Below the pieces are notes generated by a model that was given only the letters and a program-made list of their open reading frames with translations, was not told where the DNA came from and did no database searches. From the IMG/VR virus record IMGVR_UViG_3300045743_000846, positions 1 to 57,983 of that record: DNA of 57,983 nucleotides; one strand, given 5' to 3'. This DNA comes from a virus (lineage: Duplodnaviria > Caudoviricetes). This document shows, piece by piece, positions 7,243-57,983 of the stretch (position 1 is the stretch's first letter; every line of letters starts with the position of its first letter). The translations under genes were made by a program, and so were the position numbers.

Positions 7243-7291
7243 ATTGCCCAATCCGGTAGCCATCCGGCCCCGGTTCAACCGATCCAATCCC

Positions 7292-27451: not shown

Positions 27452-27553
27452 TATCAACTCCAGATTTACCAATATAAAAATACGTGGGAGTAAAAAATTT
27501 AATCGCCAGCAATGGCGTTTGTGAAAAGTTACGAAGTTTAATCCGCTATAATT

Positions 27554-28826: not shown

Positions 28827-29464
28827 CAACTAAATTCCAAGATTTTTCCAAGTCACTCTTACCATGCCATCCGTCCCCAACCCAAGGAGAACCGGATGCC
28901 CAATTTCAACGCATCGCCCCACTTTCACCACCTGCTGCATTCTCTGCCAGTCGCCCCGGTAGTGGCCGCCATAGCCAGCCAGCCGCACCTGTTCGGCCAG
29001 CACACTGACCGCACCCGCGCCCCCAACTCGCCCCACCGCGAAGCGACCGACATCTGGCTACGCTACAACGACCACCGCAATCTTGGCCCTACCTTTAACG
29101 ATGAACACGATTCGGTGTGGTATCCCGCCTGGTATGCGCTGTCGGAACTGGCCCCGCTGGTATTTGGCCTGATGCACGAAGTGCAGGGCGAACGGCTGGG
29201 CGGCATTCTGATTACCAAACTGCCACCCGGTGGCCAAATCGCCCGCCACAGCGCCCACAGTTGGCACGCCCGCTACTACGACAAGTTTTACATCGCCCTG
29301 CAAAACGCCCCCGGCAGCGTGTTTTCTTTCCCGGATGGCGACATCCACGCCCAAGCCGGGGATTGCTATTGGTTCGACAACAACGTGCCGCACAGCGTCC
29401 ACAACCAGTCCGGGCAAGACCGGCTTTCCCTCATCGGCTGCATTAAAACCGACCTGTTCAAGGA
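28827..29464 (+). repeat. Direct repeat copy 1 (~640 bp)
   Basis: Matches 31414..32051, including upstream attccaagatttttccaa and the RBS; manual count of about 29 mismatches in 569 coding nt. Confidence 0.95.
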
Positions 29465-29627
29465 ATCCCGCCATGCCGCCCCACAAAACCAACGGCAAGG
29501 TGGGGGCTTCAATGGCCAAATTTCAGAATACTTGGCCAGACCTGATTCCCTTCACTGCAAGCCTTTATCGACATCTTGCACGAATACATACGAGATTATA
29601 ACCAAAGCATTCGGCAATGTTCTTTGA
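28896..29627 (+). pseudogene. Duplicate Asp/Asn beta-hydroxylase-like gene with lost HxD ligand and foreign C-terminal extension
   Basis: ORF is open, but HTD has become HSA and LIVC has become LIGC; after KTDLFK the frame runs into unrelated AT-rich sequence. Confidence 0.6.
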
Positions 29628-29907
29628 GGCATCAAATATCTGTTCAGGATTTAAAATTGTGGCAAGTATCCAACCGTAGGCTATATGTCTAACGTGTATG
29701 TGATCAGGCGGGTCTTGACACAAACCTTTTTCAGTTTTTCGCATACAACCTAGCGCGCATCTCAACGATGCTAAGCGGCAATTGGTTAATGTTGGGGGAG
29801 CCAAAATCCGCTTAGCAAGCGGAAAAGAGTAAAATTGAAAAATAATTTATTTAATATTTTTATAGTAAATTTTAAAACCAATAAATTAACTTTGCGTTGT
29901 TTTACGG

Positions 29908-29957
29908 AAAATCCCCCAATTTCACAGGTATGTCGCAGTGTGAAGATTGGGGTTTTT
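29908..29957. terminator. Long hairpin, possible bidirectional terminator
   Basis: aaaatcccccaat-ttcaca...tgtgaa-g-attggggttttt downstream of the 30028 gene. Confidence 0.55.
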
Positions 29958-30027
29958 CAACGTCATTCTAATCCGATGAAACAACATTCCAAAATAGCTG
30001 GCTAATCGGATAGGCGAGGCAAAACTT

Positions 30028-43700: not shown

Positions 43701-46700
43701 GGCGGCATCAGGAATTGACACGCCTGCGAAAATTGGAAGCGCAACGCTTAAAAGAGCAGCTATCACCGGAACCATTTTACGCGCAGAACGCAGCCCGGCT
43801 GGGCGAATCCTATTGGGACAGCTTGGCACAGAGTTACACACCCATATAGGGCAGGCGCAACACATTCTGTACAGCCATGGCTTGGGCCGGGCGTTAAACC
43901 AAGCGGCCAACAACATCGCACAGGTACGGCTGCCTGCCGGGTATGTGGTGGGTGATTTGTTCAACCAGTCCGGCCAAATCAGTTGGTGGCACAAAACCAT
44001 AGGAACCATGGACAATTTGGCGCGCCGCCACCGCGAATTTGCCCCGGTGTATGAGTCGGCACAAAGCTTTTTGGGCGATGTGTCGCGCTATGCGGTGGTG
44101 GCTGCCGATGCCGCGCCGACCCTGCTGCCGAAACTGGAGCAGGTCAGGGATATTATCGGGGCCAAGCGCAAGAAGGCAGTCAGCGCGGAAGATACGCGCA
44201 TGATTGCCGCACCGATTTTTGAGGGCACTTTGCTTTGGGCGCGGGATGAGGATGGCGTGCCGGTGCAACTCAAGCAGTTGGAAGACCGGGCCAAGGCCAT
44301 GAGCGTGGATGAGAAAGCCGCGATTTTATTGCGGCAGGGGGTGATCGATGCGCAGCAGCAGGCGGCATGGCAAAAGATGGGGCCAAAGATGGGCCAAAAT
44401 TCGCATGACCGCATCATTGCTGAAAAGTTTGAGCAAAGCCAGTTGCAGGCGGGCATTGTTTGGGAGGATGAGGAATTGCGCACGCTGTTTCACTTGTCGG
44501 AGCCGCAAATTGCGCTGTATCGGGAATTCCGGGCCGGGGTGGATCAAAGTTTGAGCCATTTGACGATTAGCGAAATGCTGAAATTGGGCGGCAAGGAAAC
44601 GGAATTATTGCGTGATGCAGCGATGGCAGCCGAGAATTTGCCGGGTGCGGCCAAGCTGTTGACTGATTACCTGATGGAATTGGCGCAAGCCGAACCGCAA
44701 AACCAAAAGATTTATCTCGATACCGCACAGCAGATTGCCAAGCTGGCCGGGCGTGGCATCGATTTGATGAAGAAGGGCTATGCCCCCTTGTCGCGCTTTG
44801 GTCGCCATGCGGTGTATGTGCAGGAAGACGGGGAACAGGCGTATTTTGGGTTGTTTGAATCGCGCTTTGAGGCGGGCAAGATGGCGCGGAAAATGCGCGC
44901 CAATTACCCGAATGCACAGGTGACGCACGGCACGGTGTCCGATGAAGCCTATAAACTGTTTGCCGGGGTGGCCCCGGAGACGGTGGAATTGTTTGGTGAC
45001 ATGCTGGGGCTGGATCGTTTGGGCGACGATAAGAGCCGGGAACTGTATCAAACCTATTTAAAACTGACCAAGAACAATCGCAGTGCCTTGAAACGGCTGA
45101 TCGAGCGCAAGGGGATTGCCGGGTTCTCGGAAGATGCGGGCCGGGTGTTGGCCGGGTTTATCTATTCCAATGCCCGGCTGACGGCAGGTAACCTGCACCT
45201 GGGCGAGATTGACCGGGCGATTACCGAGATACCGAAGCAGCAAGGGCAATTGATTGATGCCGCAGTGCAGTTGCGCGAGCATATCCGCAACCCGCAAGGC
45301 GGGAATCTGTTGGGTGGGCTGATGTTTGCACAGTTTTTGGGCGGTTCAGTCGCTTCGGCCATGGTCAATTTAACCCAGCCCTTGACCATGACTTTGCCGT
45401 ATTTGAGCCAGTTTGGCGGTGCGCTGGCAGCAGCGCGGCAATTAACCACGGCAGCGCGGGATGCACGGCGGGCCAAAACCGGGGATGCCCGACTGGATGC
45501 GGCTTTGCAATGGGCCACCGAAGAAGGGATTGTGGCCCCGCAAGAGGTGCATTACTTGCGGGCGCAAGCCGCTGGCAAGGGCGCATTGCAAGCCGGGGAT
45601 GGGTCGAAATTGGGCAATGCCCGTGCTACGCTGAACAATGCCGTGGCTAAACTTTCGCTTGGTTGGGGCAAAATGTTTGCACTGGCTGAATTGGCTAACC
45701 GGCGCATTACCTTTATTGCGGCTTATCGCACGGCGCAGGCGCAAGGGTTGCAAAATCCGGCCTTGTTTGCACGCGATGCGGTGACGCAAACCCAGGGCGT
45801 GTACAACAGCGGCAACAAACCGGCTTGGGCGCGCGGTGCGATTGGTGGCTTGGCACTGACCTTTAAACAGTATTCGATTAATTACATTGAATTGCTGTCG
45901 CGCATGGCCATGGCAGGGCAAGCCGGATCAGCCGAGCGTGCCGCTGGCAGGCGCGCCGCTTTGTTAATGGTGGCCGTGCTGTTTTTTCTGTCCGGCGTGG
46001 ATGGTTTGCCGTTTGAAAAGAATCTGGAAGATGTGATCGATGGCATCTTGCAGCGGCTCGGGTATAACTTTGCCAGCAAGCGGCAAAAGCAGGCTTTTTT
46101 AACCGAGGTGTTGGGCGAAGGCGCGGCAGACTTTGTATTAAAAGGGGTATCGAGCCTGCCCGGCATGCCGATTGATGTGGCGGGCCGTTTGGGTATGGGC
46201 AATTTGCTGCCCGGCACCGGGTTATTGACGCAAAAGGCATCGTATACCAGTGACATCGGGGAATTGGCCGGGCCTGCCGGGGATATTGCCAAACGGGTGT
46301 TTACCGGCAGCGGCAAGCTGCTGGGCGGGGATGTGGCCGGGGCGGCGCTGGATGTGGCACCACAAGCGCTACGCAACCTGCAAAAGGGCGTGGATATGCT
46401 GGCCACTGGCCAGTATAACGATGCACGCGGCTATCAGGTCAACCCGGTGACGGTGCCCGAAGCCATCATGAAACTGGCCGGGTTTCAGCCGAACAGCACC
46501 GCCAATATTCAGGATGCCAAGGGGCAAGCATTAAACATGATTGCGCAAACCCGGCTGCGTGCCAACCAGATTCAGGAACATATGGCGCAGGGTATGGCGC
46601 AAGATGACCCGGATAGGGTACGCGAAGCACGGGCTTGGCGCGATGACTGGAATGCCAAGAATCCAGAAACGCCGATACAACTGAATATGCCGGGGGTGTT

Positions 46701-46806
46701 GCACCGGGTGCGCGCCATGCGGCAGGATGCTTTGTTGCGCACCCAGCAGACGGCACCGAAGGCGATTCGGCAGGCGGTGCAGCGCGAATTGTCTCAGGTG
46801 CGGTAA
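34732..46806 (+). CDS. 4024-aa large polyvalent internal virion protein (N6-adenine MTase, zincin-like motif, PLxRFG domain)
   Basis: Gly/Ala hydrophobic N-terminus; DFFPT, VLEPEAGWG and MNPPF (41917-41928); HEIANH (from 42553); PLSRFG (44785-44802); helical C-terminus. Confidence 0.9.
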   Translation: MNLAQARYKLPELAGLDDQSALEVIQQNYYPMLDKHDLAKQLGVTLPEPPVKQAGVLRTAGDVGIKLAQGVVDLGSSAVGLGSLATGGLVGKGMRAAGYDPKAANEILGSYLSDSQKAADDKVQHADGFVDTLAASLQNPRSILGSIAESAPGMLAGMGVSNAVARGIAAKAALATGEGAAASASARAAGQTASQAGRAALATDLGSQAASRAVDAAGNKLLALGAATEGAQAAGQIADDAQAAGRAYADYALPAIAAGTLTGSIGYGAGRLLGDAATHIATGARSTGVRGSLAARVGKELFSEGVLEELPQSAQEQAFTNLAQGEPDVMHGVANAAATGLVTGGVMGAGMGALQGRHHPANPSTSNPAQRSNPPVVLPDSGPLSQAANAGQQATATIQPAASSAPAKNTADAGDLPLNSAPPLSLDEIDARMAQLVALGHGRLASRVRDEQGNLQTVPAIKGRRLTQEETAEYQALNQARQQRTAIPPEQQADYQALLAQEQAEQQQKAAATLARQAQQAQQAQQAQQEAELAQLLAEEQAERQAQAQQAQQARAAQERQQLDITNAIVAHERQTRSEAERAALRQQVINDHSIAPQQKVAALQKLYQLSGYADPSLSAQDRHEIELATVPVRALPNELIDPVPERRPATHNKTVQPNLQAVDNAIAQGMRLRTAKGNLLHKKGSSKIFRLNGAQKAYYLEQMARLAQGQAQEPAQAEQAEQAEQVANEPARTPALEANAEPAAARVESPAPLLPADTANAEPASVANAPATPALPDAVPAPQAAPAPAKELTTRQALNRKTVKDMSDDELRQAKQVLADSPRAPKIDKEMARRGLHAEPAPASSTPAEAAQPPIPQGFVRAVDGQVQANRPATEPVTAPASGSSDTDRTSQPAKSASYFADAAVEPNPLTQPVNERGDKGIVTHPIPGIAPEPTNTADLIQGAANPQASAPQAGTHSQETIGRTIVSPDDYPLAESERSYSGISLHPNQRAQGDRDEFVKVVQNTYDAAKKLVMTEAQQAALDAAISRFKNEYLLETRKVIRVRSGTYSAFVAGRSKINTKQADARNRAYDKALVDFFGWQKNAAPRVAQAVLDARTPEQLAEVAREKAAKAAARQEKNDAFLRRLLNFKPGADTVTLGEAKLTRITYDRTGLPNALILEEPGLIKGVTDKFMIVPTLYASKDALRVAVERVRNAVQAEPSLETSQVQDYNAVAGNGAAHVEAGRVEPATPAVIGESIAKSAANTPMNLKQAKADLLAKIDEELAKAPESARTAEHRLATKLAEADLAAAQEKYRSNRTNANEKAVSELMKTVEVLRTMGNRVTFDVPGDGKFTVLFDKPHLQKFRDKVAANPGFNDKTRPVSKPKALPFTPETTLLDLLKDGELQAAYQFAKQIGKPFRFTTDRTSNVPNLYINAAPVDLVPGVATWVGKQTKREPNGGITPTASWYVIENSTGSSLGTDGTAQGAIAAAKKRVANKGVDQFFQALAEAPKVEESTLEQQWLQYHHAESIDDSHTPPPEAPTQQEPAPQHDAIVTPVIATPTDTQQPNPAIETAAIPTSEPEPAKETAQSEVEEPLRIPEGYKPVGEYYRYDIPTEGYAPFKEGDRVRMLESGWRGTVDSLFGEGPIFSSGIIKYDNGTTVRQFWHQVEAAPEQATVQPSAPDSAQTNVPTSTQAAASPVNSLAAIEQVFERASHGQLPLQEFHAAYASFNEHEAAITAELSAMKKDELLRYGGPAFTYQNRDDKKAEVVKDLYSTLREQFAFARERTLSYTLSGKNESWETARKNAIDQAVADTTQADLERYAADRQALRDKQAAKLEGMQDPKTLDDFIGLMREKVRDGMSFKAARLSLPLAQRAMFDRLTAEKSQAERGANKVPVLRAPNAPVGSTDIIQTKHTKHGHDLWQFNLEQRVSPDQFKALVVQARRLGGDYSSYRGHGAIPGWQFRSEESAKAFKALVAGDTGAAETVIQARRDAFADDRTQSATERLSEMADALEQSATASLNQDRKANTARRAEMASRADSAARHALALAQTMKNMAAALTDGSAPFLRHVRQKTQVAFLNNTVERALLAQWQASGKAYFEIENLKGSPATVEAADYAEWPTYSAYRSDLAQLGRRLLEVDGTRMLGKQILKEADDVTDAYMAFAKKNLHLVRGFSSQSGGPLVTSAKAEAEAIIYRSGFRGRAIPFSPKAREWTVIYSPGEAIERGIWPGDGDKRISLADQFGRELVAKIGRANNRGAKVTVPWQFENAYERQAMLARMGIETPAEFRATLREFINLQGQQQVADPIRELERKMVGRTNDGLDFFPTGEAAVDEMIDVAGIEPGMRVLEPEAGWGHIAEQIRQAGVEPDVVELSHDRRQLLEAKGFTVVGHDFMDISPETRGRYDRILMNPPFSDRRDAQHVMHAFTLLAPRGRLVAIMGEGVFFGQDAKAKAFREWLESVGGTSEKLPPNSFMDANLPVNTSVNARMVVIDAPETLADGVAAQPAVQPAATEATTAPAPKLSQRTTAADALGHTPASLAAAMNGALARYGDHFFTDLLATGRVQVIDQAAANAILHFAGVESGGSATPVAFYNPADQITYFIADAIPSNTSDAALYGLVLHEIANHALQMGRTEPEFGQLLRQFALMQGGNAQVAAAFARARELGTAPARLAEEALGYYLEANPTLGFAQKVLAWWRTLLRKLGQALPALNRLRWFRAVQALSAPDLVLAAQQALRQAPYVLPLNQASLREPERAPAMSQSTPNTAPNTTSNSQLVAIWQRIGQAQDGYQYPVSSARDLASVMQKVLPDSKVVRLDRDAPKARSLASLQWKITMPDGKHAYVYEFGRDLQIDASQLASGSSRGSALYAALANYAFNTGKVLEGDSAGLSPVGQMRRLENMIASAIKFGSTDHMRPHPAQKQPNSGLTQQIGLHGIRWATGDYQHNLAQMLRASYDYVSFLVPEIGHVNFTEYGDFTGADGDLFTDDNFRHLAERATGILHQRLAASGIDTPAKIGSATLKRAAITGTILRAERSPAGRILLGQLGTELHTHIGQAQHILYSHGLGRALNQAANNIAQVRLPAGYVVGDLFNQSGQISWWHKTIGTMDNLARRHREFAPVYESAQSFLGDVSRYAVVAADAAPTLLPKLEQVRDIIGAKRKKAVSAEDTRMIAAPIFEGTLLWARDEDGVPVQLKQLEDRAKAMSVDEKAAILLRQGVIDAQQQAAWQKMGPKMGQNSHDRIIAEKFEQSQLQAGIVWEDEELRTLFHLSEPQIALYREFRAGVDQSLSHLTISEMLKLGGKETELLRDAAMAAENLPGAAKLLTDYLMELAQAEPQNQKIYLDTAQQIAKLAGRGIDLMKKGYAPLSRFGRHAVYVQEDGEQAYFGLFESRFEAGKMARKMRANYPNAQVTHGTVSDEAYKLFAGVAPETVELFGDMLGLDRLGDDKSRELYQTYLKLTKNNRSALKRLIERKGIAGFSEDAGRVLAGFIYSNARLTAGNLHLGEIDRAITEIPKQQGQLIDAAVQLREHIRNPQGGNLLGGLMFAQFLGGSVASAMVNLTQPLTMTLPYLSQFGGALAAARQLTTAARDARRAKTGDARLDAALQWATEEGIVAPQEVHYLRAQAAGKGALQAGDGSKLGNARATLNNAVAKLSLGWGKMFALAELANRRITFIAAYRTAQAQGLQNPALFARDAVTQTQGVYNSGNKPAWARGAIGGLALTFKQYSINYIELLSRMAMAGQAGSAERAAGRRAALLMVAVLFFLSGVDGLPFEKNLEDVIDGILQRLGYNFASKRQKQAFLTEVLGEGAADFVLKGVSSLPGMPIDVAGRLGMGNLLPGTGLLTQKASYTSDIGELAGPAGDIAKRVFTGSGKLLGGDVAGAALDVAPQALRNLQKGVDMLATGQYNDARGYQVNPVTVPEAIMKLAGFQPNSTANIQDAKGQALNMIAQTRLRANQIQEHMAQGMAQDDPDRVREARAWRDDWNAKNPETPIQLNMPGVLHRVRAMRQDALLRTQQTAPKAIRQAVQRELSQVR

Positions 46807-46848
46807 AGGAACCGTATGGCGCGGTTGACGCGGTGGCTGGCCTGTGTT

Positions 46849-47193
46849 TTATGCCGGGTTGGCCGCTGGTTGTACCTCTAACCCGTCACGCGAACCGTGT
46901 TGTTCTTCCCACACCACCACCCAGTACGGGGCGCGTCCGCGTCCTGTCCATTGCAAGTCTGACTTTTCTGGATGGCGGTAGCGCACCGCCACCGGATTGG
47001 CCGATTTGACCCGCCCCGAACCGGTGGTCAGACCGCCCAACACCGTTTCAAGCGGTACGCCGACTTGCTGGACAATCGCCAGTATCTGCTGCCGTGCATC
47101 GTTGATTGCTTGTTGTTGCTTACGCGGCAATTCGGCTTGTACTTGCTTTTGCAGGGCTTGCAGTTCAAGAAGGGTCATATTGGATAAATCCAT
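46849..47193 (-). CDS. hns: H-NS family nucleoid protein
   Basis: VRYRHPE..QWTGRGRAPYW DNA-binding motif; N-terminal coiled coil; AAGGA RBS. Confidence 0.93.
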   Translation of the reverse strand: MDLSNMTLLELQALQKQVQAELPRKQQQAINDARQQILAIVQQVGVPLETVLGGLTTGSGRVKSANPVAVRYRHPEKSDLQWTGRGRAPYWVVVWEEQHGSRDGLEVQPAANPA

Positions 47194-47267
47194 GGTGTTT
47201 TTCCTTTAAGGGTGGGTAAAAAAGTGGAATGCGATGCGGCACGGCGATTTGGCTTGCCACTGCGATG

Positions 47268-47984
47268 CTATTTTACTGGCTTGCCACGCTTGGCCAAGGC
47301 CACGCGCAGAATTTGGCTGATATCGGGGCGGCCCATGCTCTTGGCCAAACCAAGCGTATCCCATTTGCTGGGGTCAAGCCCGGCATCGAGCGCATGTTGC
47401 AATTTGGCAGTGTTGCCGTGTTCGATGACGGTTTGCAATAAGTCGGCATCATGAAAACCGGTGACGCTGCTTTGTTGCAGCAGAAAATCAAACACCGGCA
47501 AGGCAACATCGGCTTGCGCGGCACGGGTGAGCAAAATTTCGGACAGGGTTAATTCGGGCGGGTTGGCGCGGCGGCATGGCAGGCGCAGCAAACCGGCATC
47601 GTCCAATACGGTCAGCTTTGCCAGCACTTCGGTAGGCAGGCCGGACAGTTGCGCCAATAAGAAGGTTTTGGCTTGATCCTGATGCGGGCCATTGCTGGGC
47701 CATTGTTGCCGCAATTGTGGCGCGAGCCGCGCGCGGATCAGGGAAGCAATTGCGCCCTTGGGATTGGCCCACTGGCTGCCGGGCTGCTGCAATAGATCGT
47801 CCAGCCGTGTCCAGTCGAGCCGTTCTTGTCCGATGGGGGGTAACAGTGGTAGCGCGGGCATCGGGCTTGGGCCGGGGTGCGGTGGTTGGTTTTGATGGGC
47901 GTGGCTGATGGCCGGAGCAAGCCGCACGCCCATGGCCAGCAAAAGGGTAGTCAGACAGATAAGAAGTGGCAGGGAACGGCGCAT
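47268..47984 (-). CDS. Exported protein with ankyrin-like C-terminus
   Basis: Signal peptide MRRSLPLLICLTTLLLAMG; LLQTVIEHGNTAKLQHALDAGLDP..LGLAKSMGRPDISQIL. Confidence 0.6.
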   Translation of the reverse strand: MRRSLPLLICLTTLLLAMGVRLAPAISHAHQNQPPHPGPSPMPALPLLPPIGQERLDWTRLDDLLQQPGSQWANPKGAIASLIRARLAPQLRQQWPSNGPHQDQAKTFLLAQLSGLPTEVLAKLTVLDDAGLLRLPCRRANPPELTLSEILLTRAAQADVALPVFDFLLQQSSVTGFHDADLLQTVIEHGNTAKLQHALDAGLDPSKWDTLGLAKSMGRPDISQILRVALAKRGKPVK

Positions 47985-48044
47985 GGTCAGTCCTTGAGCA
48001 AAACGGTAAGGGATGAGCGTTGGAAGGGGCGGGTGTTCACAAGG

Positions 48045-48722
48045 CTACCGTTGCGAGCGCGGTGCGCTGGGGGCTTTCATGTCACGCATCTCGATGCAGA
48101 TATCGGCGATGTCCCTCAGTTCAAACGGTGCATGGCGACCGGTCAAGAGCACGGTGAGCTGTGGCGGGCGTTGCTGCAAACCGCGTAGCACGGCATCGAT
48201 ATTCAGGTAATTGTGATGCAGCATCAGGTTGATGTCGTCCAGAATGAGCATGGCCAAATCAGGTTGGTGCATTTTTTCTGTGGCGTATTGCCACGCGTGC
48301 CGGATTAAATCGGTATCCTGCATGCGGTCTTGCTTGTTCCAGGTGCAGCCCCGGCCAAAGGTCTCAAAAACGCACTGCGCATGCTGCCCCAAAAACTGGC
48401 GCGCCGGGCTGTTTTGTGGGGTATCCAGAAATTGCACTACCGCCAGTGGTCGGTTTTGCGCCAATACCGCCATGCCCATGCCGAAAGCGGTGTTCGATTT
48501 GCCCAGTCCATCGCCTGTGAGAACGATGATTTGGCCCGTGGCGGGATTCGCTGCGGCGGTAGCGGGTTGTGGCCTGACCGGGTTTTCCGGGTTGGTGGGC
48601 AGGCTGGCGCGTGGCGCTGGCACTAATTTCTGTTGCCACCGCTGTTGCCATTGGTACTGGCGCTGGGTGTGTTCTTGCATTTCGTTTGGCGGGGTTGTGC
48701 TTGGTTCGGCCAAGGCGGACAT
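48045..48722 (-). CDS. cobO: Degenerate cob(I)alamin adenosyltransferase (CobO/BtuR/CobA-like)
   Basis: GQIIVLTGDGLGKSNTAFG, VVQF, G.GCTW, LILDD and LLTGRHAP..ADICIEM align to CobO, with motif substitutions and no C-terminal tail. Confidence 0.8.
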   Translation of the reverse strand: MSALAEPSTTPPNEMQEHTQRQYQWQQRWQQKLVPAPRASLPTNPENPVRPQPATAAANPATGQIIVLTGDGLGKSNTAFGMGMAVLAQNRPLAVVQFLDTPQNSPARQFLGQHAQCVFETFGRGCTWNKQDRMQDTDLIRHAWQYATEKMHQPDLAMLILDDINLMLHHNYLNIDAVLRGLQQRPPQLTVLLTGRHAPFELRDIADICIEMRDMKAPSAPRSQR

Positions 48723-48844
48723 CGTTATCTCCTTAGAATGGGTGATCTTTATCGGTTTTGCGCAAGGTTTGGGCTAACCGGTTCATAGTGGGTTGTCTTC
48801 AAAAAAATGGGGAAGGTTGGCCGATTGAGGCACCGCTGCCCAAT

Positions 48845-50515
48845 TCACACGGGCTTTTTTTGCCAACTTCCCCCCGGCACCACACCGGTTCCGGGAACCG
48901 GATTGGTGCCAAATGCCCGCCATACTGCACGGGCGGTGCTACCAGCATCGCTATCGCTACCACTGCTACTACCACTACCACTGCTACTGCTACTACCACT
49001 GCCACTGCTACTACCACTGCTACTACCACTGCCACTGCTACTACTACCACTGCTACTACCACTGCCACTGCTACTACTACCACTGCTACTACTTCCTCTG
49101 CTGCTACTGCTTCTACTGCCACTGTTGCCGCCACCGCTCTCCGGTGGGCTGTTGCCCGCATCTGCCGCGTGGCGTGGTGGGGCATAGTCGGCCAACAACA
49201 GGCTATATTCGTTTGCGGCCAGGTTATCGTTGCCTACCCTGTGCAAATACGGGTGTTGGCCTTGCACCTGACTGGCTTGCCATGCGCGTTTGATGGAGTG
49301 GGCGTCGTAGCGAGGTGGGGCAATGCCCGCACCGAGCAGAGCCGGGATGCGCGGATGGATGAAGGCCACCTGTTTGGCGGTGTTTTGGCCGCGCAACAGC
49401 AGGATCAGGGGCTGTGGGGCAGACTGCCCCTGTTGGCGCGGCAGTTCGATCACGGTATCGAGTTGCTGGTGCTGCACCACATAGCGCCAGAGTACTTGGG
49501 CGTCGGGATCGTGGATCAGGTTTTGTGGCACCACCAGCGCCATGCGCCCGTTTTCGGCAAGGCTGGCCAGCATGTGCCAGATCAGCGCGATTCTGGCATC
49601 TTGCGGAACTTGTACCGGGAAGCGTTGCCAAGTATCAAAGCGGGCAAAGGCATAATCCCATTCGGTGGCTTGCTCGGGCAATTGGCACAGGATCAGGTCA
49701 CTTTTTAATAGTTGTGCGGTTTCGACAGGGCTGCCGGGGGAGTGGATCAGGCTGTTCAGGAGTGGCGCGGTCAGGGTGTCGCCGCGCTGGAGTTGGTGAT
49801 AATCGATTTCTTTGGCCAGCAGGTACAGGGCGGCGCACGCCCATTGGTCGGGGTCGGTGGTTTGGCCACGCAGGCGCAGTAAATGGGTGCGGTTGTGGGC
49901 TTCGACATAGGCTAATACGGCAAACAGCAGTTGACCGGTGCCAAAGGCGGGGTCATATACGCTGTTTCTGCGCAGCGGGGCCAACAAGGTTGCGATGAGT
50001 TTAGCCAGATGGGCGGGCAACGGGTGGGCTTTGGGTAGCAGGTGTGCCATGGCTTGCTGGTAGACGGTTCCGGCGGACAGAAAGGGGGTGGCGGGGATGC
50101 TGCCGAGCAGTTGCATGATGTCGGCCCAAATGCTGTTATCGGCAAAGAGTGCTGCCCATGGGGCATCCGGCCCGAAGCGTTCGGGCCGAAAGATACGGTC
50201 AAGCTGCGGTTGTTGCTGACACAGGGTAAACAGGCTTTGGTGAATCGCGCTGCCAGCGTCATCTTGCCGCCATTGGCAGGCATCGAACAGGCATTCGGGC
50301 GAAAACGGAATCGGGATGGCACTGAGCATATCGGCCACGACGCTGGTTTGCCCGGCGCATTGGCCGGATACGAGTTTGCTTTCTACCCGGTAACGCACCG
50401 AGAGTTGTTGCCACATCAGAAGCGTGACTAATAAATCAGCTCCGATGGTTTGCGGCAAGCCAACCGGCAGGCGCTTTTGGGCTTGATCGAGTTGGATCAG
50501 AAAGGCGCTCATCAC
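48845..50515 (-). CDS. Type I R-M M-subunit (HsdM)-like protein lacking catalytic NPPF; Gly/Ser tail
   Basis: SVYDPAFGTGQLL, RGQ, RGDTLTAP, GRMALVVP, VIELP and ANEYSL; motif IV reads SDLILCQLPE. Confidence 0.8.
   Translation of the reverse strand: MMSAFLIQLDQAQKRLPVGLPQTIGADLLVTLLMWQQLSVRYRVESKLVSGQCAGQTSVVADMLSAIPIPFSPECLFDACQWRQDDAGSAIHQSLFTLCQQQPQLDRIFRPERFGPDAPWAALFADNSIWADIMQLLGSIPATPFLSAGTVYQQAMAHLLPKAHPLPAHLAKLIATLLAPLRRNSVYDPAFGTGQLLFAVLAYVEAHNRTHLLRLRGQTTDPDQWACAALYLLAKEIDYHQLQRGDTLTAPLLNSLIHSPGSPVETAQLLKSDLILCQLPEQATEWDYAFARFDTWQRFPVQVPQDARIALIWHMLASLAENGRMALVVPQNLIHDPDAQVLWRYVVQHQQLDTVIELPRQQGQSAPQPLILLLRGQNTAKQVAFIHPRIPALLGAGIAPPRYDAHSIKRAWQASQVQGQHPYLHRVGNDNLAANEYSLLLADYAPPRHAADAGNSPPESGGGNSGSRSSSSRGSSSSGSSSSGSGSSSGSSSSGSGSSSGSSSGSGSSSSSGSGSSSGSDSDAGSTARAVWRAFGTNPVPGTGVVPGGSWQKKPV
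48950..49125. repeat. Trinucleotide-based microsatellite (acc/act/gct) encoding a GSSS linker on the minus strand
   Basis: Repeated accactgctact units. Confidence 0.9.
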
Positions 50516-52038
50516 AGGTTGTCCAAAGGTTGTTGGTTGGCGGCGGGATAGTCGCGCCAGTTCAGGCTGTACTGCTGGTGGGCGATGCTGCTATGGCTAA
50601 TCGTGCGCACGTTGGGGTGGCTGTGGCGCGATTGGATGGCGTACCAGGCATGCAAGATGGTTTTGGCATCGTAACGGGCCGGGTAATCCGGTTGCGACAG
50701 ATCGGGCTGAATATCGGGCTGAATATCGGAATGGATATCGGCATGAATATCGGGCTGAAGGTCGGGGTCACGGGTCAGATCGGCATCCGGGTCAGCCGCA
50801 ATCGGCGCATTGGTAGAGCCGCTCTGGTTTGGGTTTGACTGAGCCGGAACAATGAAGCTAACGTGCCGCCTTTGGGCTTGTTTGATGCAGATCAGCAGCA
50901 GCAGCGCGCCATCCTGCCTCCAGGGTAACAGCGAGGGCGGCAGATCGATTACGGCAGATAACCCGTTTCTTAGCAGGTATTGCACCAAGGGTTGGGCGCG
51001 GGTATCGGCCAGCACGCTGGCGGGCACGATCAGGGCAATGCGGGCGTTGTGCGGGCGGGCGCAGGCGATGGCGTGCCAGATGTGCGCCAGTTCGGGCGTC
51101 TCGGGCAGGCCATGCGGAAAGCGCTGGGCAAAGATGCCAGCGGCAGCGGGTAAGCGCTCGGGTGTTGATCTTGCGACATGTGCCGCCGTGGCTGAATCTG
51201 GCCCGATGGCGCTTAGGACGATATCGGCGCTACGCAGTGCCTGTAGTGGTGGCATGGTTAGCGGCGCATCCAAAAAGCGGCCCCGGCTCAGGTTGGCGGG
51301 CGGGTAGCCATGGGCCAACAGGCGCAGCTTGGCGAGCGCGAGCTGTTCCGGGTTGGGGTCTTGGCCATACAGGTTCAGACTGGCTTGCACCGGTTCCCCG
51401 GCGCTTTGGGTGGTTTGCGCCAGTTGGGTGGCGCAGGCCATGAGTAAATCCCCTTGACCGCACAGCGGGTCAAGAATGGTTTCATGCGGAAACACTTGTA
51501 CCAGTTGCGCCGCCAGTTGTGCCAGCCGGGGCGGTGCGCCGTCTTCCTGCAAGCCAAGCTGTAGCATGGCGCGCTCCACCAGTGGCCCAAGTGGCATTTT
51601 GGGTTGATACCGGATAGCACCGAGTATGGTCATCAGGCTGGCCAGCACCGGGGTGGCGAACAGTTGGGCGGCAAATTCGCTTTGGTAGCCGAAGCGTTCC
51701 GGCAGCAGGATATCGTTCAGTGCGTGGTCGGGCTGCGCTGCCATCCAGCCATACAGGCTGGTGCGAATTGCGTTGCCGAATTGGCGTAGATCGGGACTGT
51801 GGCAGGCGCTAAACAGGCAGTCGGGGTGAAATTGTAGGGTGCTGGCCAGTGTGGCGGGTGTGCTGTGGCTTGGGGTGGGCCGGTGTTGCCAGGCATCGGA
51901 CAGGCATTTCCACACCAGCAAGGTCAGGATCATTGCACCGCTGGTGGCGCGCGGCATGGCTTTGGGCATCAGGTTTTGGGCTTCTTTGAGCCGGGTCAGT
52001 ATCGGTTGCATGGGTTGCATGGGTTGCGTGGTTGGCAT
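50512..52038 (-). CDS. Type I R-M M-subunit (HsdM)-like protein lacking catalytic NPPF
   Basis: HsdM_N-like ILTLLVWKCLSD; TILDPLCGQGDLL, LYGQD, ARIALIVP, AVIDLPPSL and QYSLN; motif IV reads ADIVLSAIGP; stop overlaps the next start. Start could be TTG 52062. Confidence 0.8.
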   Translation of the reverse strand: MPTTQPMQPMQPILTRLKEAQNLMPKAMPRATSGAMILTLLVWKCLSDAWQHRPTPSHSTPATLASTLQFHPDCLFSACHSPDLRQFGNAIRTSLYGWMAAQPDHALNDILLPERFGYQSEFAAQLFATPVLASLMTILGAIRYQPKMPLGPLVERAMLQLGLQEDGAPPRLAQLAAQLVQVFPHETILDPLCGQGDLLMACATQLAQTTQSAGEPVQASLNLYGQDPNPEQLALAKLRLLAHGYPPANLSRGRFLDAPLTMPPLQALRSADIVLSAIGPDSATAAHVARSTPERLPAAAGIFAQRFPHGLPETPELAHIWHAIACARPHNARIALIVPASVLADTRAQPLVQYLLRNGLSAVIDLPPSLLPWRQDGALLLLICIKQAQRRHVSFIVPAQSNPNQSGSTNAPIAADPDADLTRDPDLQPDIHADIHSDIQPDIQPDLSQPDYPARYDAKTILHAWYAIQSRHSHPNVRTISHSSIAHQQYSLNWRDYPAANQQPLDNL

Positions 52039-52199
52039 GAGTTGGCCGGGCGGTGATGTCAATCGGGTTCAAAAAAATGGGGGTGACGACGTGGACAGTT
52101 TGGCACGGCCAGTTTGGCACGGCACACCAAGCAGGCCATTCTGTTCGCCATCCCCCCATCAAACCTTGTCGTAGAGGAGACTAAGGATCGGTTGCCGGG

Positions 52200-52670
52200 T
52201 TAATTGGCCAATGGTGGTGGATGGGCAGCGGTGGACAGTGGTAAACCGTGTTCGTTCAGCATCGCTTGCAACAGTTCACCCAAGGCGCTTTGCTCGCGCC
52301 ACAGGGCGGCGCGGGCGCTGACCAGACCATCGAGTTCGGCCAGGGCGGTTTCGTGCTCGCTGCGGCCGGGGGTGGTTTCGGAGAGGTCAAGGGTTTTTTG
52401 CCACATTTCCTGATCCATGCTGGCCAGTTCCACGCTGCCATCGCGTTGTCTTGTCAATACTTCGAGCAAGGCGGTAAAACCGGTGGGAATCGGGTCGCCA
52501 GACGCTACGGCAAAGATGCTGCGGCACGCTGATGTAAAGGCAGAGAAACGCGGTTCCGTGCCAGTCAGACGTTGGTATTCCTGCTCTATCTGCCGCGCCA
52601 ATTTTGCAGATTGCGCGGTGAGGGCTTTGTGTATGAGTTGCAAGTCTATAAAGCTCGGTTGCTTGTTCAT
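52200..52670 (-). CDS. Hypothetical helical protein upstream of the HsdM-like pair
   Basis: ATG 52670 (MNKQPSF) after AAGG; amphipathic helices; the frame is open further upstream. Confidence 0.6.
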   Translation of the reverse strand: MNKQPSFIDLQLIHKALTAQSAKLARQIEQEYQRLTGTEPRFSAFTSACRSIFAVASGDPIPTGFTALLEVLTRQRDGSVELASMDQEMWQKTLDLSETTPGRSEHETALAELDGLVSARAALWREQSALGELLQAMLNEHGLPLSTAAHPPPLAN

Positions 52671-53590
52671 CGCGGTGCCTTGATCGTTCGGGGTTGGCTG
52701 GTACGGTCGGGTGATAAGGGGAGCGGGAACCGGTGGCGGTGGGCTAACTGGAGAGATAGATTTTTGCCACCGGCCCCGCTTTGCTACGCTTGGTAAGGCT
52801 GCTGATTGGGCAGCCTTGTTAATCAGGGGCACGGGTTGTGGCCAAGGCTGCGGCGCGCCCGTTTCAGGTAGCACAGCAAGCGGGCCGCTTGGTAACGCAT
52901 GGTGCGGCAGTGGGTTAGCACGCCGGACAGTTTCAGGGCCATGCCCCGGTAACGCGGGCGGGCCATGGCGGCGGGGGCGTGGTGCCGGGCCGCTGCGCGC
53001 CGGGGTTGCGAGTGCTGGCCGGGGCTGTGGGCCGGGCGATGGCTGGCCGGATGTGACCGGCCCATGTGGCGTGGGTGGTGCGTGGTGGCATGTTGCAATG
53101 TATGTTTCTGGTTAAGCATTTTTCAATCTCGGTAGTTTGGTTTGAACTGTGTTCATTAACGCTTGTGGCGCGGCCCCTGTGGTATGCCTTGGCTAGCTGC
53201 TTCGGGCAATGGGGTATTGCAAATGTTTCAAGTTATGGGACGGGTGCAAGGGCTTACTGACCCATGGTGTAAGCTTTCGGCCCTTGCCACCGTCGATGCA
53301 ACCATTTCCCTTACACTGCCATGCAGGTACGATTTGTTCTGCGTGGCAGATACATTTGTGCGTGGGTTTTTGAATGCACCAGGTACTAGCATACCGGCAA
53401 AAAGAGTCATACGCAACACGGAAATTAAATAAATTTCGACAAATGACACTTTTATCGCACCGAGAACGCTTTTTCCGAGGAAAACGCCGGTTAACTTAGA
53501 ATTTTTTGGCGACTGTTGAAAGATATGACTCATTGTGCAATAATTGCGACCTATTGCCAGACATCCTGTTTATCTCCCCGACATGACCAC

Positions 53591-54055
53591 ATGAATGATG
53601 CGCCCGTGCCAACCGACCAAGCACATCGGATTAAAGTAGAGCGGAAACGGCTGGGCAAGACCCAAGACCAAATCGCGGCATTGTGTGGCGCATCACGCGA
53701 AATGTGGGGGCGCTACGAACGGGGTGCATTTCCGATGCCGGGCAGTGTTTTTCGAGCTTTTGTGGCAGAGGGAGCGAATGCCGATTTTCTGAGGACGGGA
53801 ACCCATGCGCAGGCGTTGACGATGCAGCTAGCGCAGGAAAAGGAAAGCACTGCCGAGGCAACAGGTGCTGCATTTGCCCTGTTGCAGGCTGCATTGGCAA
53901 TCGGCACGCACATTGCGCAGTATGGCAATGATGCCCCGCTGGCATTGACGACAGCCGAGTATGCATTGGTGTTGGCGTACCGCGTGGCGAGCGTTGCACG
54001 CAAGGCTGATTTTCACGATCTGGTGGTGGCGCAAACCGAAAAAAAGAGGGATTAA
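53591..54055 (+). CDS. XRE-family HTH regulator (paralogue 1)
   Basis: RIKVERKRLGKTQDQIAALCGASREMWGRYERG..FLRTG; C-terminal LTTAEYALVLAYRVAS. Confidence 0.88.
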   Translation: MNDAPVPTDQAHRIKVERKRLGKTQDQIAALCGASREMWGRYERGAFPMPGSVFRAFVAEGANADFLRTGTHAQALTMQLAQEKESTAEATGAAFALLQAALAIGTHIAQYGNDAPLALTTAEYALVLAYRVASVARKADFHDLVVAQTEKKRD

Positions 54056-54211
54056 TGTGATATTTTTTTGAATACCTCTGAAGAAGCACAACCCGATTCG
54101 ATTTTAGGCGCGTCATTTGTTGTATTTTTGATTTTTTATGGTTTGCTAGGCAAAAACCTTGTTTCATACGGCGTGTTGTGGAATAATTCGCTACCTATTA
54201 CACTGTGGCAC

Positions 54212-54781
54212 ATGACTTCGTATACGACAATGAGAGAATCGCTTATTCCTGCCGACCTGACCCATCGGCTCAAAGTAGAACGCAAGCGGCTTGGCAAAAG
54301 TCAGGGCGAAATGGCTGATATGTGCGGCTCCTCGCGGGAAATGTGGGGCAGATATGAACGCGGCACTTATCCTATTTCGGAAGGCGTGTTGCGTGCATTC
54401 ATTGATTGCGGGGCCGATGCCACGTATTTAAGTACCGGCACCCGAGCAACCACCGTGCCGAAGCCACCGCTTGCGCGGGCAGTGCCGGAGGCGCAGCAAT
54501 CCACCATTACCCTGCCTGCCGCCACCGTGGTCGACATCGGCGCGGCCAATGCCAATACGCCCAACAACGGCATGTCTGCCCAAGCTGTGGACATGGCGTT
54601 TCAGGTATTGCATGCCGCGCTGACAGGTGGCCAGCACGCAGGCCAAGCGGACGGCGGCACGCTGCTTCGGGTTTCCCCCGCTGAACACGAACTGGTCATG
54701 GCCTACCGGCAAGCCAGTCTGGATCGCAAGGAGGTTTTTCATGATTTGGTCTTCGCGCAGAAACGCAGGGCAGCACTATGA
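54212..54781 (+). CDS. XRE-family HTH regulator (paralogue 2)
   Basis: RLKVERKRLGKSQGEMADMCGSSREMWGRYERG..YLSTG; C-terminal VSPAEHELVMAYRQAS; start 54212 or 54230. Confidence 0.88.
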   Translation: MTSYTTMRESLIPADLTHRLKVERKRLGKSQGEMADMCGSSREMWGRYERGTYPISEGVLRAFIDCGADATYLSTGTRATTVPKPPLARAVPEAQQSTITLPAATVVDIGAANANTPNNGMSAQAVDMAFQVLHAALTGGQHAGQADGGTLLRVSPAEHELVMAYRQASLDRKEVFHDLVFAQKRRAAL

Positions 54782-56007: not shown

Positions 56008-56277
56008 TTAGCTGACGCGATTGGTATTACCCACAGTCGCCATTAACTTCGCGCCACAACTGGTCTTGTGTCCATCCAGCGCCACCGGTTTGCCATTGAT
56101 CAACCAATTGCCATCACCTTCGGCAATCACGCAATGGTTGTGCCCCGGTAGCGGGCAACTGCATTTATCACCGACACAGGCCAGTGCCTTACCCATCAGG
56201 TTGGTTTGACTTTGCGCGGTTTGTACCGCACCGCCATGGCTAGTTGGGTCGCCCAAGCGAATCGGGGCCACCATCAA
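56008..56277 (-). CDS. PAAR domain protein (T6SS spike tip)
   Basis: IRLGDPTSHGG..GDKCSCP..GH..INGKPVALDGHKTSCGAKL. Confidence 0.93.
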   Translation of the reverse strand: MMVAPIRLGDPTSHGGAVQTAQSQTNLMGKALACVGDKCSCPLPGHNHCVIAEGDGNWLINGKPVALDGHKTSCGAKLMATVGNTNRVS

Positions 56278-57983
56278 TTTTCCCCTTGCGCTGCGTCATG
56301 CGCAATCAGCGTCCAACTTGCGCCAACTTGTACCAGTTCCGGCGCGCCCGCTACCTTTTGCAGCAGGCTACGATTTTGCTGGATTTGGATGTACGGCAAG
56401 GCTTGCCCTTGGCGCAGCGGGTGGTCGGCACCATATCTTGCATCGGCTGGAGTGCAACGCCAGATGCCGCTTTGTGGACAGGTTTGGCCGGTATTGAGCG
56501 TGGTGCCGAGTGGCACGGCTGGGGCCATGGCCGATAAGGCCGGGATGGCCATTTCAAGCGGTATGGTCGCATCCGGGTCGAAATTATCGGGCAGTGGCTG
56601 GCCGGGGGTAGCGGCTACGCTGGCCGGTTCTACGTTTGCCAGTATGGCTGGTTCGGGCACGGTGGGAATATCACTTAGCACCGGGGCCAGGCCAAAATCA
56701 ATCGGATCACCCGCCGGATGTTTGCGTTTGTCATTGCCGGGGCTGATCACGGTAATGGTGGCTTGGTTTGGATCACGCAAATTGACGGCAACAGACGGGT
56801 TCTTGTTGCGGTAGCTGGCAATCAAGCCCAAATTCCACATCACGAACGGGGATGCAGCACCGGTTTCACCGAGACGGCGATGGATGTTGTAGCCGTTCTT
56901 CGGGTCAAACATATCAAAATGTGGGTCGTTCAGGTGCAGGTTCAGGGACAGCGGCACCACGGCCTTGCCATGGGATGCGTCACCATGGTCGTAGAAGATG
57001 CGCGCCTGTTTTTGCCCTTCCGGTAAGACGCCGAGTGCTGTTTTCCAACCGGCCTGAAATGCCAATTGTTTGTCGTGGTCGCTCATCAAGGTCTTTTTGA
57101 GTTTCGGCTCAAGCGTTGGGTGGCCGTCTTTGTCCTTCATGTAGGTCACGGTAACGGGCCGGTGCAAAATGCCGATGGTGGGCAGGTCGTCAAATTGTTT
57201 GATTTGCCAATCCAGCCAAGTTTCGGGCATGAATTCCGATGGTTTAAAGGGGGGCTTGCCCTTTGGATTGACTTCGTTGTAGGCGTTTGGCCCCTTGCTG
57301 GCGCGCACATATGGGCGCATGGCTTCGATGCGGTCGCGCCGGGCGAGTAGGATGGAGGCGATGCTTTCGGTGGGGTCGCCTTGTTTGTGGTAGCCTTCCG
57401 GGGTGCCGTTCCAGTCACGCACTGCGATGAGCAGGACGGGAACTTCAGGATGGTATTCAAAGAACTGGAATGCACTTTCCAAGACACTTTCCGGCAAGTC
57501 ACTGTATATCGGCTTTCTTATTTGCTTGGTTTGGTGTCCATGCAATCCGGCAGGTTGAAATATGGTGCCAATCCAATCGTAGTCGTCATTTCCTGGGCGT
57601 GTGCGCGTTTCAATCCGTCTGGTTGGCATCACATACACGTTGGGTATTACCCAACCTGCGGTAAAGTAACGGACACAATGCTCAATCGAGTCCGCTTCAC
57701 GTTGCCTGCTAATCAAGCCACGATAAGTGGCGTCCCAATAATAGAATTTTTGATCTTGTGGGACGATGGATTTGTCGCCCGCTTCATCCATCTTGCGCAG
57801 GGCGGTAGATTGCCTGAAATGTTCGATCGAGAGGCCAAGGCCAAGGACATCGAGCGTTTGCAGTCGTTTTTCAGCGGGTATCGTCATTTTTTTTTCGCTT
57901 AATTGGGTTGACAAATCAGTGGCTTGTACCGTCGTGATCAAGAAACCAATCAGGGCGATGATTACCGGATAGAATATTTTCAT
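56274..57983 (-). CDS. T6SS lipase-adaptor Tla3 / DUF2875-like protein
   Basis: FQFFEYHPEVP, W..WQIKQFDDLPTIGILHRP and RRLGETGAASPF..LGLIASY motifs; C-terminal TGQTCPQSGIW; overlaps the PAAR start. Confidence 0.75.
   Translation of the reverse strand: MKIFYPVIIALIGFLITTVQATDLSTQLSEKKMTIPAEKRLQTLDVLGLGLSIEHFRQSTALRKMDEAGDKSIVPQDQKFYYWDATYRGLISRQREADSIEHCVRYFTAGWVIPNVYVMPTRRIETRTRPGNDDYDWIGTIFQPAGLHGHQTKQIRKPIYSDLPESVLESAFQFFEYHPEVPVLLIAVRDWNGTPEGYHKQGDPTESIASILLARRDRIEAMRPYVRASKGPNAYNEVNPKGKPPFKPSEFMPETWLDWQIKQFDDLPTIGILHRPVTVTYMKDKDGHPTLEPKLKKTLMSDHDKQLAFQAGWKTALGVLPEGQKQARIFYDHGDASHGKAVVPLSLNLHLNDPHFDMFDPKNGYNIHRRLGETGAASPFVMWNLGLIASYRNKNPSVAVNLRDPNQATITVISPGNDKRKHPAGDPIDFGLAPVLSDIPTVPEPAILANVEPASVAATPGQPLPDNFDPDATIPLEMAIPALSAMAPAVPLGTTLNTGQTCPQSGIWRCTPADARYGADHPLRQGQALPYIQIQQNRSLLQKVAGAPELVQVGASWTLIAHDAAQGEN

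Follow-up and report, generated by a model that had tools for sequence, protein, structure and literature searches.

In the m6A/m4C (N6-methyladenine/N4-methylcytosine) type I restriction-modification (R-M) systems, a methyltransferase gene M1 with an NPPF motif is followed by a second, M2, with an NPPY motif, and then by S and R, and an APPA mutant of either motif IV is reported to abolish the corresponding methylation (PMC5100572). The structural account of one such system, PacII, describes contact between M1 and M2 through their N-terminal and catalytic domains and a four-helix bundle formed by the C-terminal tails with S, and reports that tail deletion abolishes M1M2S assembly (PMC9613975). 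Ronin (hsdS-hsdM-ronA) is presented as an immunity system built on an HsdMS decoy, in which the motif IV mutant F287G still works (bioRxiv 10.1101/2023.04.06.535777). Here we analyzed the IMG/VR record IMGVR_UViG_3300045743_000846 (Caudoviricetes), whose 57,983 nucleotides are referred to as the window, and focus on two tandem minus-strand genes, MA (upstream) and MB (downstream), that encode HsdM-like proteins. These belong to a family which lost motif X, motif IV and the HsdS-docking tail and kept the fold and most of motif I, and they stand in a conserved module between a helical protein, U, and a CobA-like P-loop protein. We tentatively read them as subunits that bind or sense rather than methylate.

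The HsdM-like pair and its family

N6_Mtase (PF02384), the gamma-class amino-methyltransferase fold, is matched by both proteins over the Pfam cut-off of 20.4 bits, by one at 88.7 bits (E 5.9e-25) and by the other at 39.7 bits (E 4.9e-10). The two share 29% identity (E 4e-37). The MB open reading frame (ORF; 48845..50515) encodes 556 aa from a GTG codon or 555 aa from the ATG at 50512, and the MA ORF (50512..52062) encodes 516 aa from a TTG codon or, from the ATG at 52011 where its relatives begin, 499 aa; another in-frame ATG lies at 52038. At the junction, CTG TGA TGA GCG, the stop TGA of MA and the start ATG of MB overlap by one A, and the two genes are translationally coupled through this TGATG.

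Motif I reads DPLCGQG in MA (residues 181-187, 51451-51471) and DPAFGTG in MB (residues 187-193, 49934-49954), and the C-terminal element YSLxxxDY is kept in both. At the position of motif IV, MA has SAIGPD (AIGP; residues 267-272, 51196-51213) and MB has CQLPEQ (QLPE; residues 276-281, 49670-49687), and NPPF is found in neither. Motif X (FxTP), the element that covers the methionine part of S-adenosylmethionine (SAM), is likewise absent, its place being taken by GAPP in MA and PLPA in MB. MA ends 11 residues past YSLNWRDY and has no C-terminal tail; MB carries the family motif RPERF at 50174-50188 and, further on, a Ser/Gly-rich linker (~49138 to 48938, ~65 residues) followed by a short conserved C-terminal peptide. 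In read mapping against the window, this linker attracted very many unrelated contigs (depth 26710 at 48982-49122). MA has a lineage-specific, acidic low-complexity insert with DIHxDIQPD-type repeats (residues ~395-455, 50650-50830), from which its relative P0009 is free.

No match to Methylase_S (PF01420), ResIII (PF04851) or HSDR_N (PF04313) was found in the window. An initial annotation, made from the sequence alone, had described two HsdM-like frames joined by TGATG, with motif I and the C-terminal Y.L element kept, motif IV lost and neither hsdS nor hsdR nearby, and our results agree with it on each of these points. The tandem arrangement of two differing M genes is by itself no oddity; M1M2S type I systems such as PacII make this a known layout (PMC5100572; PMC9613975).

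The predicted structures point to the same relatives. The AlphaFold2 model of MB residues 1-451 (predicted local distance difference test, pLDDT, 90.0; predicted template-modeling score, pTM, 0.89) has as its best PDB match 7VRU_A, which is PacII M1 (Foldseek E 3.9e-20; query-based template-modeling score, TMq, 0.78); chains A/B of 7VRU and 7VS4 rank first (E 3.9e-20 to 6.3e-19, TMq 0.71-0.78), with ordinary HsdM structures below them. Residues 1-490 of the ESM Atlas model of MA align with HsdM clusters carrying HsdM_N (template-modeling score 0.75), and a profile of the family described below (A3) has PacII M1 and M2 as its top matches (E 4.5e-43 and 1.1e-39). Judging by these models, the HsdM fold, including its N-terminal domain, is fully kept in MA and MB. 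Matches to narrower families are much weaker: TIGR00497 (HsdM) gives 29.6 bits for MB against a cut-off of 242.75 and no match for MA, and NF047738 (mad2) gives 28.9 and 17.7 bits where its cut-off asks for 720, the PADLOC mad2 match (E ~1e-10) spanning the generic methyltransferase region alone. Among the PHROGs, both proteins match phrog_2713, at 4.8e-26 (profile positions 197-479 of 520) and 3.1e-14.

To place the pair within the HsdM-like proteins, we collected relatives by a word-based search, which found P0004 (58%) and P0005 (51%) for MB and P0009 (50%) and P0010 (26%) for MA, and by a HMMER scan with a six-sequence profile, which gave 6029 matches at E <= 0.001 and 117 at <= 1e-30. The resulting alignment has 154 rows (the two window proteins, the 150 matches listed, P0005 and P0010); the family is defined as the 41 best rows of the 154, window pair included, and the 113 more distant rows serve for comparison. 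Motif IV is covered by 39 family rows, 38 of which are without both N/D/S and PP[F/Y/W]: it reads x-[LVI]-P-x in 32 and AIGP, TIAP, HLER, DLSE, HLRA or MLVH in six others, the single row with PP being P0043 (HPPF), and the remaining two of the 41 are fragments that do not reach it. The Thr of motif X is present in five of 41 family rows vs 88 of 113 distant ones. The D, P, G and G of motif I are present in 35, 34, 33 and 35 of the 41 (112, 111, 105 and 96 of the 113), with the motif broken in several members (GDA, ASA, EQG, SDP); the acidic residue of motif II occurs in 29/41 vs 108/113, the Asp of motif III in 21/41 vs 93/113, and the Trp after motif IV in 34/41 vs 102/113. The best-kept family-specific site is P-E-R-F in the N-terminal domain, with P in 34 and F in 33 of the 35 non-gap rows. 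Family proteins are ~417-471 aa long and end shortly after YSLxxxY, whereas canonical relatives in the same genomes are ~495-520 aa long and carry FYTP, NPPFSLxKW and a C-terminal RYVDTFEEE with a coiled coil. In the 113 distant HsdM-like rows (P0046-P0158), motif IV is canonical [NDS]PP[FYW] in 38, HPP[FYW] in 11, x[LVI]Px in 16 (e.g., HLPF, DLPF) and something else in 26, which may point to a broader gray zone in which HsdM homologues carry odd forms of motif IV, though part of this could be alignment slippage.

In a tree built from 40 family and 14 canonical rows, without the fragments P0025, P0026, P0029, P0031, P0034, P0037, P0039, P0041 and P0044, without P0043 (HPPF) and without the remaining 99 distant matches, the family (~40 cluster representatives) forms one clade with a Shimodaira-Hasegawa-like approximate likelihood ratio test (SH-aLRT) value of 100. 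Within it, an MA group (window, locus L007 and P0009) is sister to an MB group (window, locus L004 and P0005, with P0017; SH-aLRT 98), and the three M-like copies of a related viral contig, L003, fall in other sub-clades, so that the tandem arrays join old paralogue lines and not fresh duplicates. Family members are mutually 25-35% identical, with frames open throughout their 417-471 aa. Pairwise ratios of nonsynonymous to synonymous divergence (dN/dS, by the NG86 method) between the window and related loci are 0.29 for MA (vs L007; synonymous divergence, dS, 0.81), 0.33 for MB (vs L004; dS 0.84) and 0.30 for the CobA-like gene (vs L006; dS 0.82). MA, MB and the CobA-like gene are thus under purifying selection, though not a strict one, and MA and MB are not decaying. 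The proposal that these are pseudo-methylases and not products of decay, for which a conserved loss of NPPF and a dN/dS below 1 among homologues had been named as the check, is borne out by the motif counts, the clade and the selection estimates alike.

With motif X, motif IV and the tail gone, the pair cannot be a standard methylase of the M2S kind or join host HsdS by the known route. Titration of host HsdS, which the initial annotation had suggested, is accordingly unlikely for a family that is tail-less, given the reported effect of tail deletion on M1M2S (PMC9613975).

Partner genes and prophage setting

The window is a podovirus-like provirus record, and its gene content agrees with a prophage. 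The features to which we refer are as follows.

1-1344: tyrosine integrase, at the left end of the window
between the integrase and portal genes: DUF1376 protein
9924-12326: SU10-type portal
14057-15058: capsid protein
16332-16991: SU10 adaptor
27554-28444, minus strand: AbiTii abortive-infection gene (E 4.5e-39)
34732-46806, plus strand: giant protein of 4024 aa with an LPD37 'polyvalent protein' domain, convergent with the module
46849-47193, minus strand: 114-aa protein with an H-NS C-terminal DNA-binding domain (PF00816, E 3.4e-9)
47268-47984, minus strand: u238, a basic protein (isoelectric point, pI, 9.6) of 238 aa with a hydrophobic, signal-like N-terminus
48045-48722, minus strand: CobA/BtuR/CobO-like P-loop protein of 225 aa (PF02572)
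48845-50512, minus strand: MB, HsdM-like pseudo-methylase of 555 aa, downstream member of the pair
50512-52011, minus strand: MA, HsdM-like pseudo-methylase of 499 aa, upstream member of the pair
52200-52670, minus strand: U, an all-helical protein of 156 aa, its ORF open to a GTG at 52874
53516-54055 and 54068-54781, plus strand: two HTH_31 regulator genes, divergent from the module
56274-57983, minus strand: Tla3-like type VI secretion lipase-adaptor gene (Tla3_C, E 1.9e-29)

The CobA-like protein scores 119.9 bits against PF02572, over the cut-off and across profile positions 2-159 of 172, and stays below the NCBIfam cut-offs of TIGR00708 (128.8 vs 167.75) and NF004637 (144 vs 185). Its residues 54-216 align with Salmonella CobA (1G5R/4HUT; E 5.5e-25), following a 55-aa N-terminal extension, and its P-loop reads GDGLGKS, with GLGKSN replacing GKGKTT and GK[ST] kept. 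No other cobalamin gene was found among the window ORFs scanned. The order M-like then CobA-like recurs at seven loci (the window, L003, L004, L005, L006, G002:C774 and G003:C647), six of which are independent because the L005 and L006 alleles are 99.3% identical.

The upstream partner, U, is predicted to form a hairpin of two long helices (residues 63-97 and 104-140; model pLDDT 74.6). None of at least 500 PDB matches to this model reaches E 0.001, there is no usable Atlas match, and U gives no Pfam, PHROG or PADLOC match. Copies that are 87-91% identical occur on three other long contigs, and U-like ORFs, linked through a chain of BLAST matches, stand upstream of M-like genes in the window, L003, L005 (two copies), L007, L009, L091 and L092; a weak U-like ORF precedes the M-like genes of L008, and L122 has a U-like ORF ahead of a CobA-like gene. 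A search of viral contigs with U (P0160) gave no match, and a complex prediction for U with MA, at a score of 0.00, counts neither for nor against binding. We also considered MA, MB and U as DNA mimics and rejected this, their pI values (5.2 to 7.0) being not strongly acidic. MA and MB, first described as orphans, are part of a conserved U - M-like - CobA-like module, and a related phage contig even carries a weak HsdS-like ORF.

That contig, L003, is a 57-kb viral contig with three tandem M-like genes and a CobA-like gene, followed at 6545-7702 (+) by a 385-aa ORF with a Methylase_S match (E 1.4e-4); its three best PDB matches are all HsdS chains at E 0.08-0.13, a weak likeness, and the window has no counterpart of it. 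As a hidden HsdS of the window we considered u238 and rejected it, for it has neither similarity to the L003 ORF nor a PDB match; no counterpart of u238 was found in the related loci examined. The M-like proteins of the window and L003 are 31% identical at best, and the C-terminal third of the giant protein is 67.6% identical to a convergent giant ORF in L003. Copy number of the M-like genes varies from two in the window to three in L003 and at least three in L008. The layout of the window is repeated in L091, a metagenome-assembled genome (MAG) of the Burkholderiaceae, where u287 and two helix-turn-helix (HTH) genes are followed by divergent U-like and M-like genes.

These related loci were collected with the sub-family alignments A5 and A6; alignment A4 against viral contigs and alignment A2 against genome contigs gave no match. 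Relatives come from MAGs of Burkholderiaceae, Oxalobacteraceae and 'Pseudomonadota'. Three MAGs have several family copies each, on short contigs. Among 401 sampled genomes of the order to which G001, a Janthinobacterium MAG, belongs, G001 alone has a strong family match (545.7 bits), and the matches in 12 other genomes are canonical HsdM. In a tblastn search of 50,697 phage records, the MB core found 12 records, all partial matches of <30% identity to ordinary HsdM-like genes, and the CobA-like protein found one weak record in the phage collection. Solo M-like copies occur in chromosomal settings (L009, L010 and L092), the flanks examined being without phage genes. Near the M-like genes of L009, L010, L092 and L006, the four loci with chromosomal-looking flanks, lie within a few genes HATPase_c histidine-kinase-type genes or response regulators, and L009 additionally has a Fic-like_C/HATPase_c_4 gene; this company may be chance, because L010 and L092 share one MAG.

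In the one run that contains the window, a riverine metagenome, MA-MB is covered by a single contig and the U region (52166-52900) by several variant contigs, which show ~8-12 differences per 130-190 aligned bases and continue into unlike sequence; the U region is a mosaic boundary between related phages. Upstream of the L005 and L006 alleles, too, the sequence differs: L005 has U-U there and L006 the end of MA, and the switch point lies ~60 nt ahead of the start codon. Taken together, fast divergence alongside a giant gene that changes slowly, copy-number change, mosaic borders and patchy occurrence would be the usual marks of phage-host conflict.

Within the prophage, the module is part of a minus-strand row that converges on the giant gene, and it lies beside the immunity region. 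The last gene of this row is that of the 114-aa H-NS-type protein, which could be a xenogeneic-silencing mimic or antagonist. In the giant ORF, Pfam recognizes LPD37 alone (residues 2765-3018), leaving ~3700 residues unannotated. The AbiTii gene lies in a low-GC island inside the prophage (26000-30000; 44-46% vs ~58%) that looks like a defense moron. The Tla3-like gene at the right edge, for which no relative was found in the genome contigs, is probably host DNA beyond the prophage end. Scanning 46600-54200 for promoters and terminators gave sites no more numerous than in shuffled sequence.

A binding or sensing module and its rivals

The explanation that we favor, and which we hold tentatively, is that MA and MB bind or sense without catalysis, as subunits of a U-M(1-3)-CobA-like conflict module that is carried by phages and evolves fast. 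MA and MB would probably form an M1-M2-like heteromer, made in equal amounts by way of the TGATG coupling; this coupling, together with the M1-M2 precedent, is what suggests it. Possibly they still bind an adenosyl ligand, since the kept motif I suggests binding of an adenosine-type compound. The constant company of a P-loop enzyme further suggests a division of labor, in which the M-like proteins would be the binding or sensing part and the CobA-like NTPase/adenosyltransferase the enzymatic part of a self-contained module. Temperate phages carry this module next to their immunity region. As to the direction of the conflict, we lean slightly toward a lysogen-protecting sensor-plus-effector system over counter-defense, because the module has several genes including an NTPase, because its neighbors (the H-NS-like gene and the secreted-looking u238) resemble morons, because solo copies exist on chromosomes, and because Ronin offers a reported precedent for a type I derivative that acts without methylase activity (bioRxiv 10.1101/2023.04.06.535777). 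The same decoy lends a precedent to the earlier suggestion that the pair may serve as bait for DNA mimics. We count the AbiTii gene of the prophage as a supporting genomic setting.

A more specific version, which we consider rather unlikely as it stands, is that U - M-like(n) - CobA-like is an undescribed immune or counter-immune system with a dead M1/M2-type heteromer as its sensor and the P-loop enzyme as its effector or signal maker. For example, the CobA-like protein might turn ATP into an adenosyl compound and triphosphate, and the vestigial SAM pocket might read that compound.

Several findings weigh against our preferred explanation. Thr stands at motif II of MB and Arg at motif III of MA, which makes SAM binding by either subunit uncertain. 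At the former Phe position of motif IV, 20 of the 41 family rows have Asp or Glu, and this acidic residue could mark a new, not a dead, active site. In L009 and L010 no CobA-like gene follows the M-like gene, and PADLOC returns generic MTase_I and mad2 matches for the pair and none for U, the CobA-like protein or u238, so that no known defense system is recognized. The giant polyvalent virion protein next door fits counter-defense equally. In L005 (1995-2843) and L006 (198-1046), MB has an in-frame deletion of residues ~186-395 that removes the whole Rossmann core and keeps the N-terminal domain and C-terminal subdomain, which leaves two readings, a dispensable core or a decaying copy.

The last of these findings concerns the 3' end of MB, which had been described as full-length and uninterrupted along with MA. 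The two long open frames stand, and MB stops 23 codons before its orthologues end (GGSWQKKPV*). The conserved ending, ARVNWAAVPQSANLPHFFEDNPL, is present in the -1 frame directly after CAA AAA AAG: the A run lies at 48855-48861, and the -1 continuation (48783-48854, minus strand) encodes it. P0004 and P0005 read the ending in frame (...W-L-K-x-A-x-V-N-W..., ~23 further residues). A separately assembled Logan contig of run X1, the one run that contains the window, has the same seven A's and no differences across 48700-49031; as run X1 is possibly the source sample, this rules out an assembly slip and not a real mutation. The site contains A AAA AAG (48854-48860), the classical -1 slippery heptamer, and the end of MB could be explained by programmed frameshifting, by phase variation or by the recent deletion of one base.

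Counter-defense is a serious rival, the module being adjacent to the immunity region and the polyvalent virion protein and itself conserved within one phage lineage. A concrete form is an anti-restriction decoy, the main idea of the initial annotation, in which HsdM look-alikes made early in infection would sequester host HsdR or HsdM and poison restriction, several diverged paralogues covering several host type I families. The fully kept HsdM fold with its N-terminal domain, the fast evolution and variable copy number, and the position of the pair, beside the immunity region and converging on a member of the giant polyvalent proteins, a class proposed to counter host defenses (PMC5512222), all suit such a decoy. 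The available text of that paper mentions neither HsdM, CobA, LPD37 nor an adenosyltransferase, and a review (PMC3874165) yielded nothing on HsdR-HsdM contact. The C-terminal tail by which HsdM joins HsdS (PMC9613975) is absent family-wide, however; U always and the CobA-like NTPase often accompany the M-like genes, and a plain decoy needs neither; and solo chromosomal copies exist whose examined flanks hold no phage genes. We regard the decoy as unlikely.

Somewhat more doubtful is an active enzyme with a new chemistry, whose Rossmann domain would still bind SAM and transfer its methyl group, or some other portion of it, to something that is not an exocyclic DNA amine, with an [LVI]-P-[D/E]...W loop replacing NPPF. 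Both window proteins and ~85% of members keep motif I, the acidic residue and the following Trp recur as counted above, selection is purifying, and the frequent oddity of motif IV among the distant relatives means that variation there need not mean death. A cofactor site would be expected to be kept in such an enzyme, but motif X is lost, motifs II and III are retained in only part of the family, motif I is broken in several members and the whole core is deleted in one lineage; moreover, the APPA mutants of motif IV in the closest characterized relatives are reported to be inactive (PMC5100572).

It is improbable, in our judgment, that the locus is foremost an adenosyl-ligand module, in which the CobA-like protein is a true ATP:corrinoid adenosyltransferase or makes another adenosyl compound and the M-like proteins bind or buffer SAM or the product, either soaking up a SAM-derived immune signal like a sponge or serving an auxiliary metabolic function. 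The alignment with Salmonella CobA, the intact P-loop, the tight linkage of the CobA-like gene to the M-like genes, and the retention of motif I, on the nucleotide side, with loss of motif IV and of motif X, on the methionine side, are in keeping with it. The scores under both NCBIfam cobA cut-offs, the change from GKGKTT to GLGKSN and the lack of other cobalamin genes among the window ORFs scanned argue against it, and it is reached by inference only.

That MA and MB are functionless remnants of an M1M2S type I system nearing loss is very improbable, for although three functional elements are lost, the MB end is shifted to -1, the core is deleted from MB in L005/L006 and one internal TAA was reported in the match at G001:C50 (where the ORF is nevertheless intact to 441 aa), the frames stay open across so diverged a clade, dN/dS is 0.29-0.33 at dS 0.8, and the family-specific PERF and the linkage to U and the CobA-like gene are conserved.

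Parts of R-M systems have repeatedly been reused in immune systems, among them BREX, DISARM, MADS and Ronin. Here a whole HsdM-derived clade has shed catalysis and S-docking, is still under selection and travels with two fixed partners in temperate phages. Should the module defend lysogens or disarm hosts, it would offer a clean natural example of how a methylase can become purely a binding or sensing protein, and it would give a CobA-like enzyme its first non-cobalamin role; a dead sensor paired with an adenosyltransferase-like effector would be a new rewiring of the R-M scaffold. A practical consequence concerns annotation: because both proteins pass the N6_Mtase cut-off, they are likely to be labeled as subunits of a type I methylase or as N-6 DNA methylases, and genes of the MA/MB type are not to be counted as active methylases.

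Comparison with known systems

The best match in both sequence and fold is PacII M1M2S (7VRU, 7VS4; Morgan et al. 2016, PMC5100572; Zhu et al. 2022, PMC9613975). MA and MB share with it two distinct tandem M genes, the N-terminal and catalytic domains and the Trp after motif IV. PacII has NPPF in M1, NPPY in M2, AGEF/AAEF-YTP, an S-binding tail, and S and R genes, whereas in MA and MB motif IV, motif X and the tail are gone and the neighbors are U and a CobA-like gene, with no S or R in the window. Canonical HsdM proteins such as those of EcoKI and EcoR124I have the PF02384 fold, motif I and the C-terminal YxL subdomain in common with the pair; unlike them, MA and MB are without NPPF, FxTP and the S-binding tail and fall far under the TIGR00497 cut-off.

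Ronin, as presented in the preprint, derives from a type I system, has no hsdR and is proposed to bind rather than methylate; it consists of a catalytically competent HsdM, an HsdS and a 61-aa membrane effector (Silas et al. 2023). Unlike Ronin, the window has no hsdS, its M proteins appear natively dead and tail-less, and the candidate effector is the CobA-like P-loop protein. That protein matches nearly the entire domain of CobA/BtuR/CobO (PF02572; 1G5R, 4HUT) with GK[ST] kept; unlike CobA, it and its relatives have an N-terminal extension of 55-110 aa, a GLGKSN P-loop in the window lineage, scores under the NCBIfam equivalog cut-off in the window protein, and a place in a phage accessory operon instead of a cobalamin gene set.

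Among phage families, the one matched by both MA and MB, phrog_2713, is without annotation. Our literature search, from which supplementary tables were excluded, found no account of a tail-less, NPPF-less HsdM family or of its linkage to U and CobA-like genes. Collectively, these comparisons place the tandem M layout among what is known, and what appears to be new is a dead, tail-less branch of M1/M2-type HsdM set in a new three-part module.

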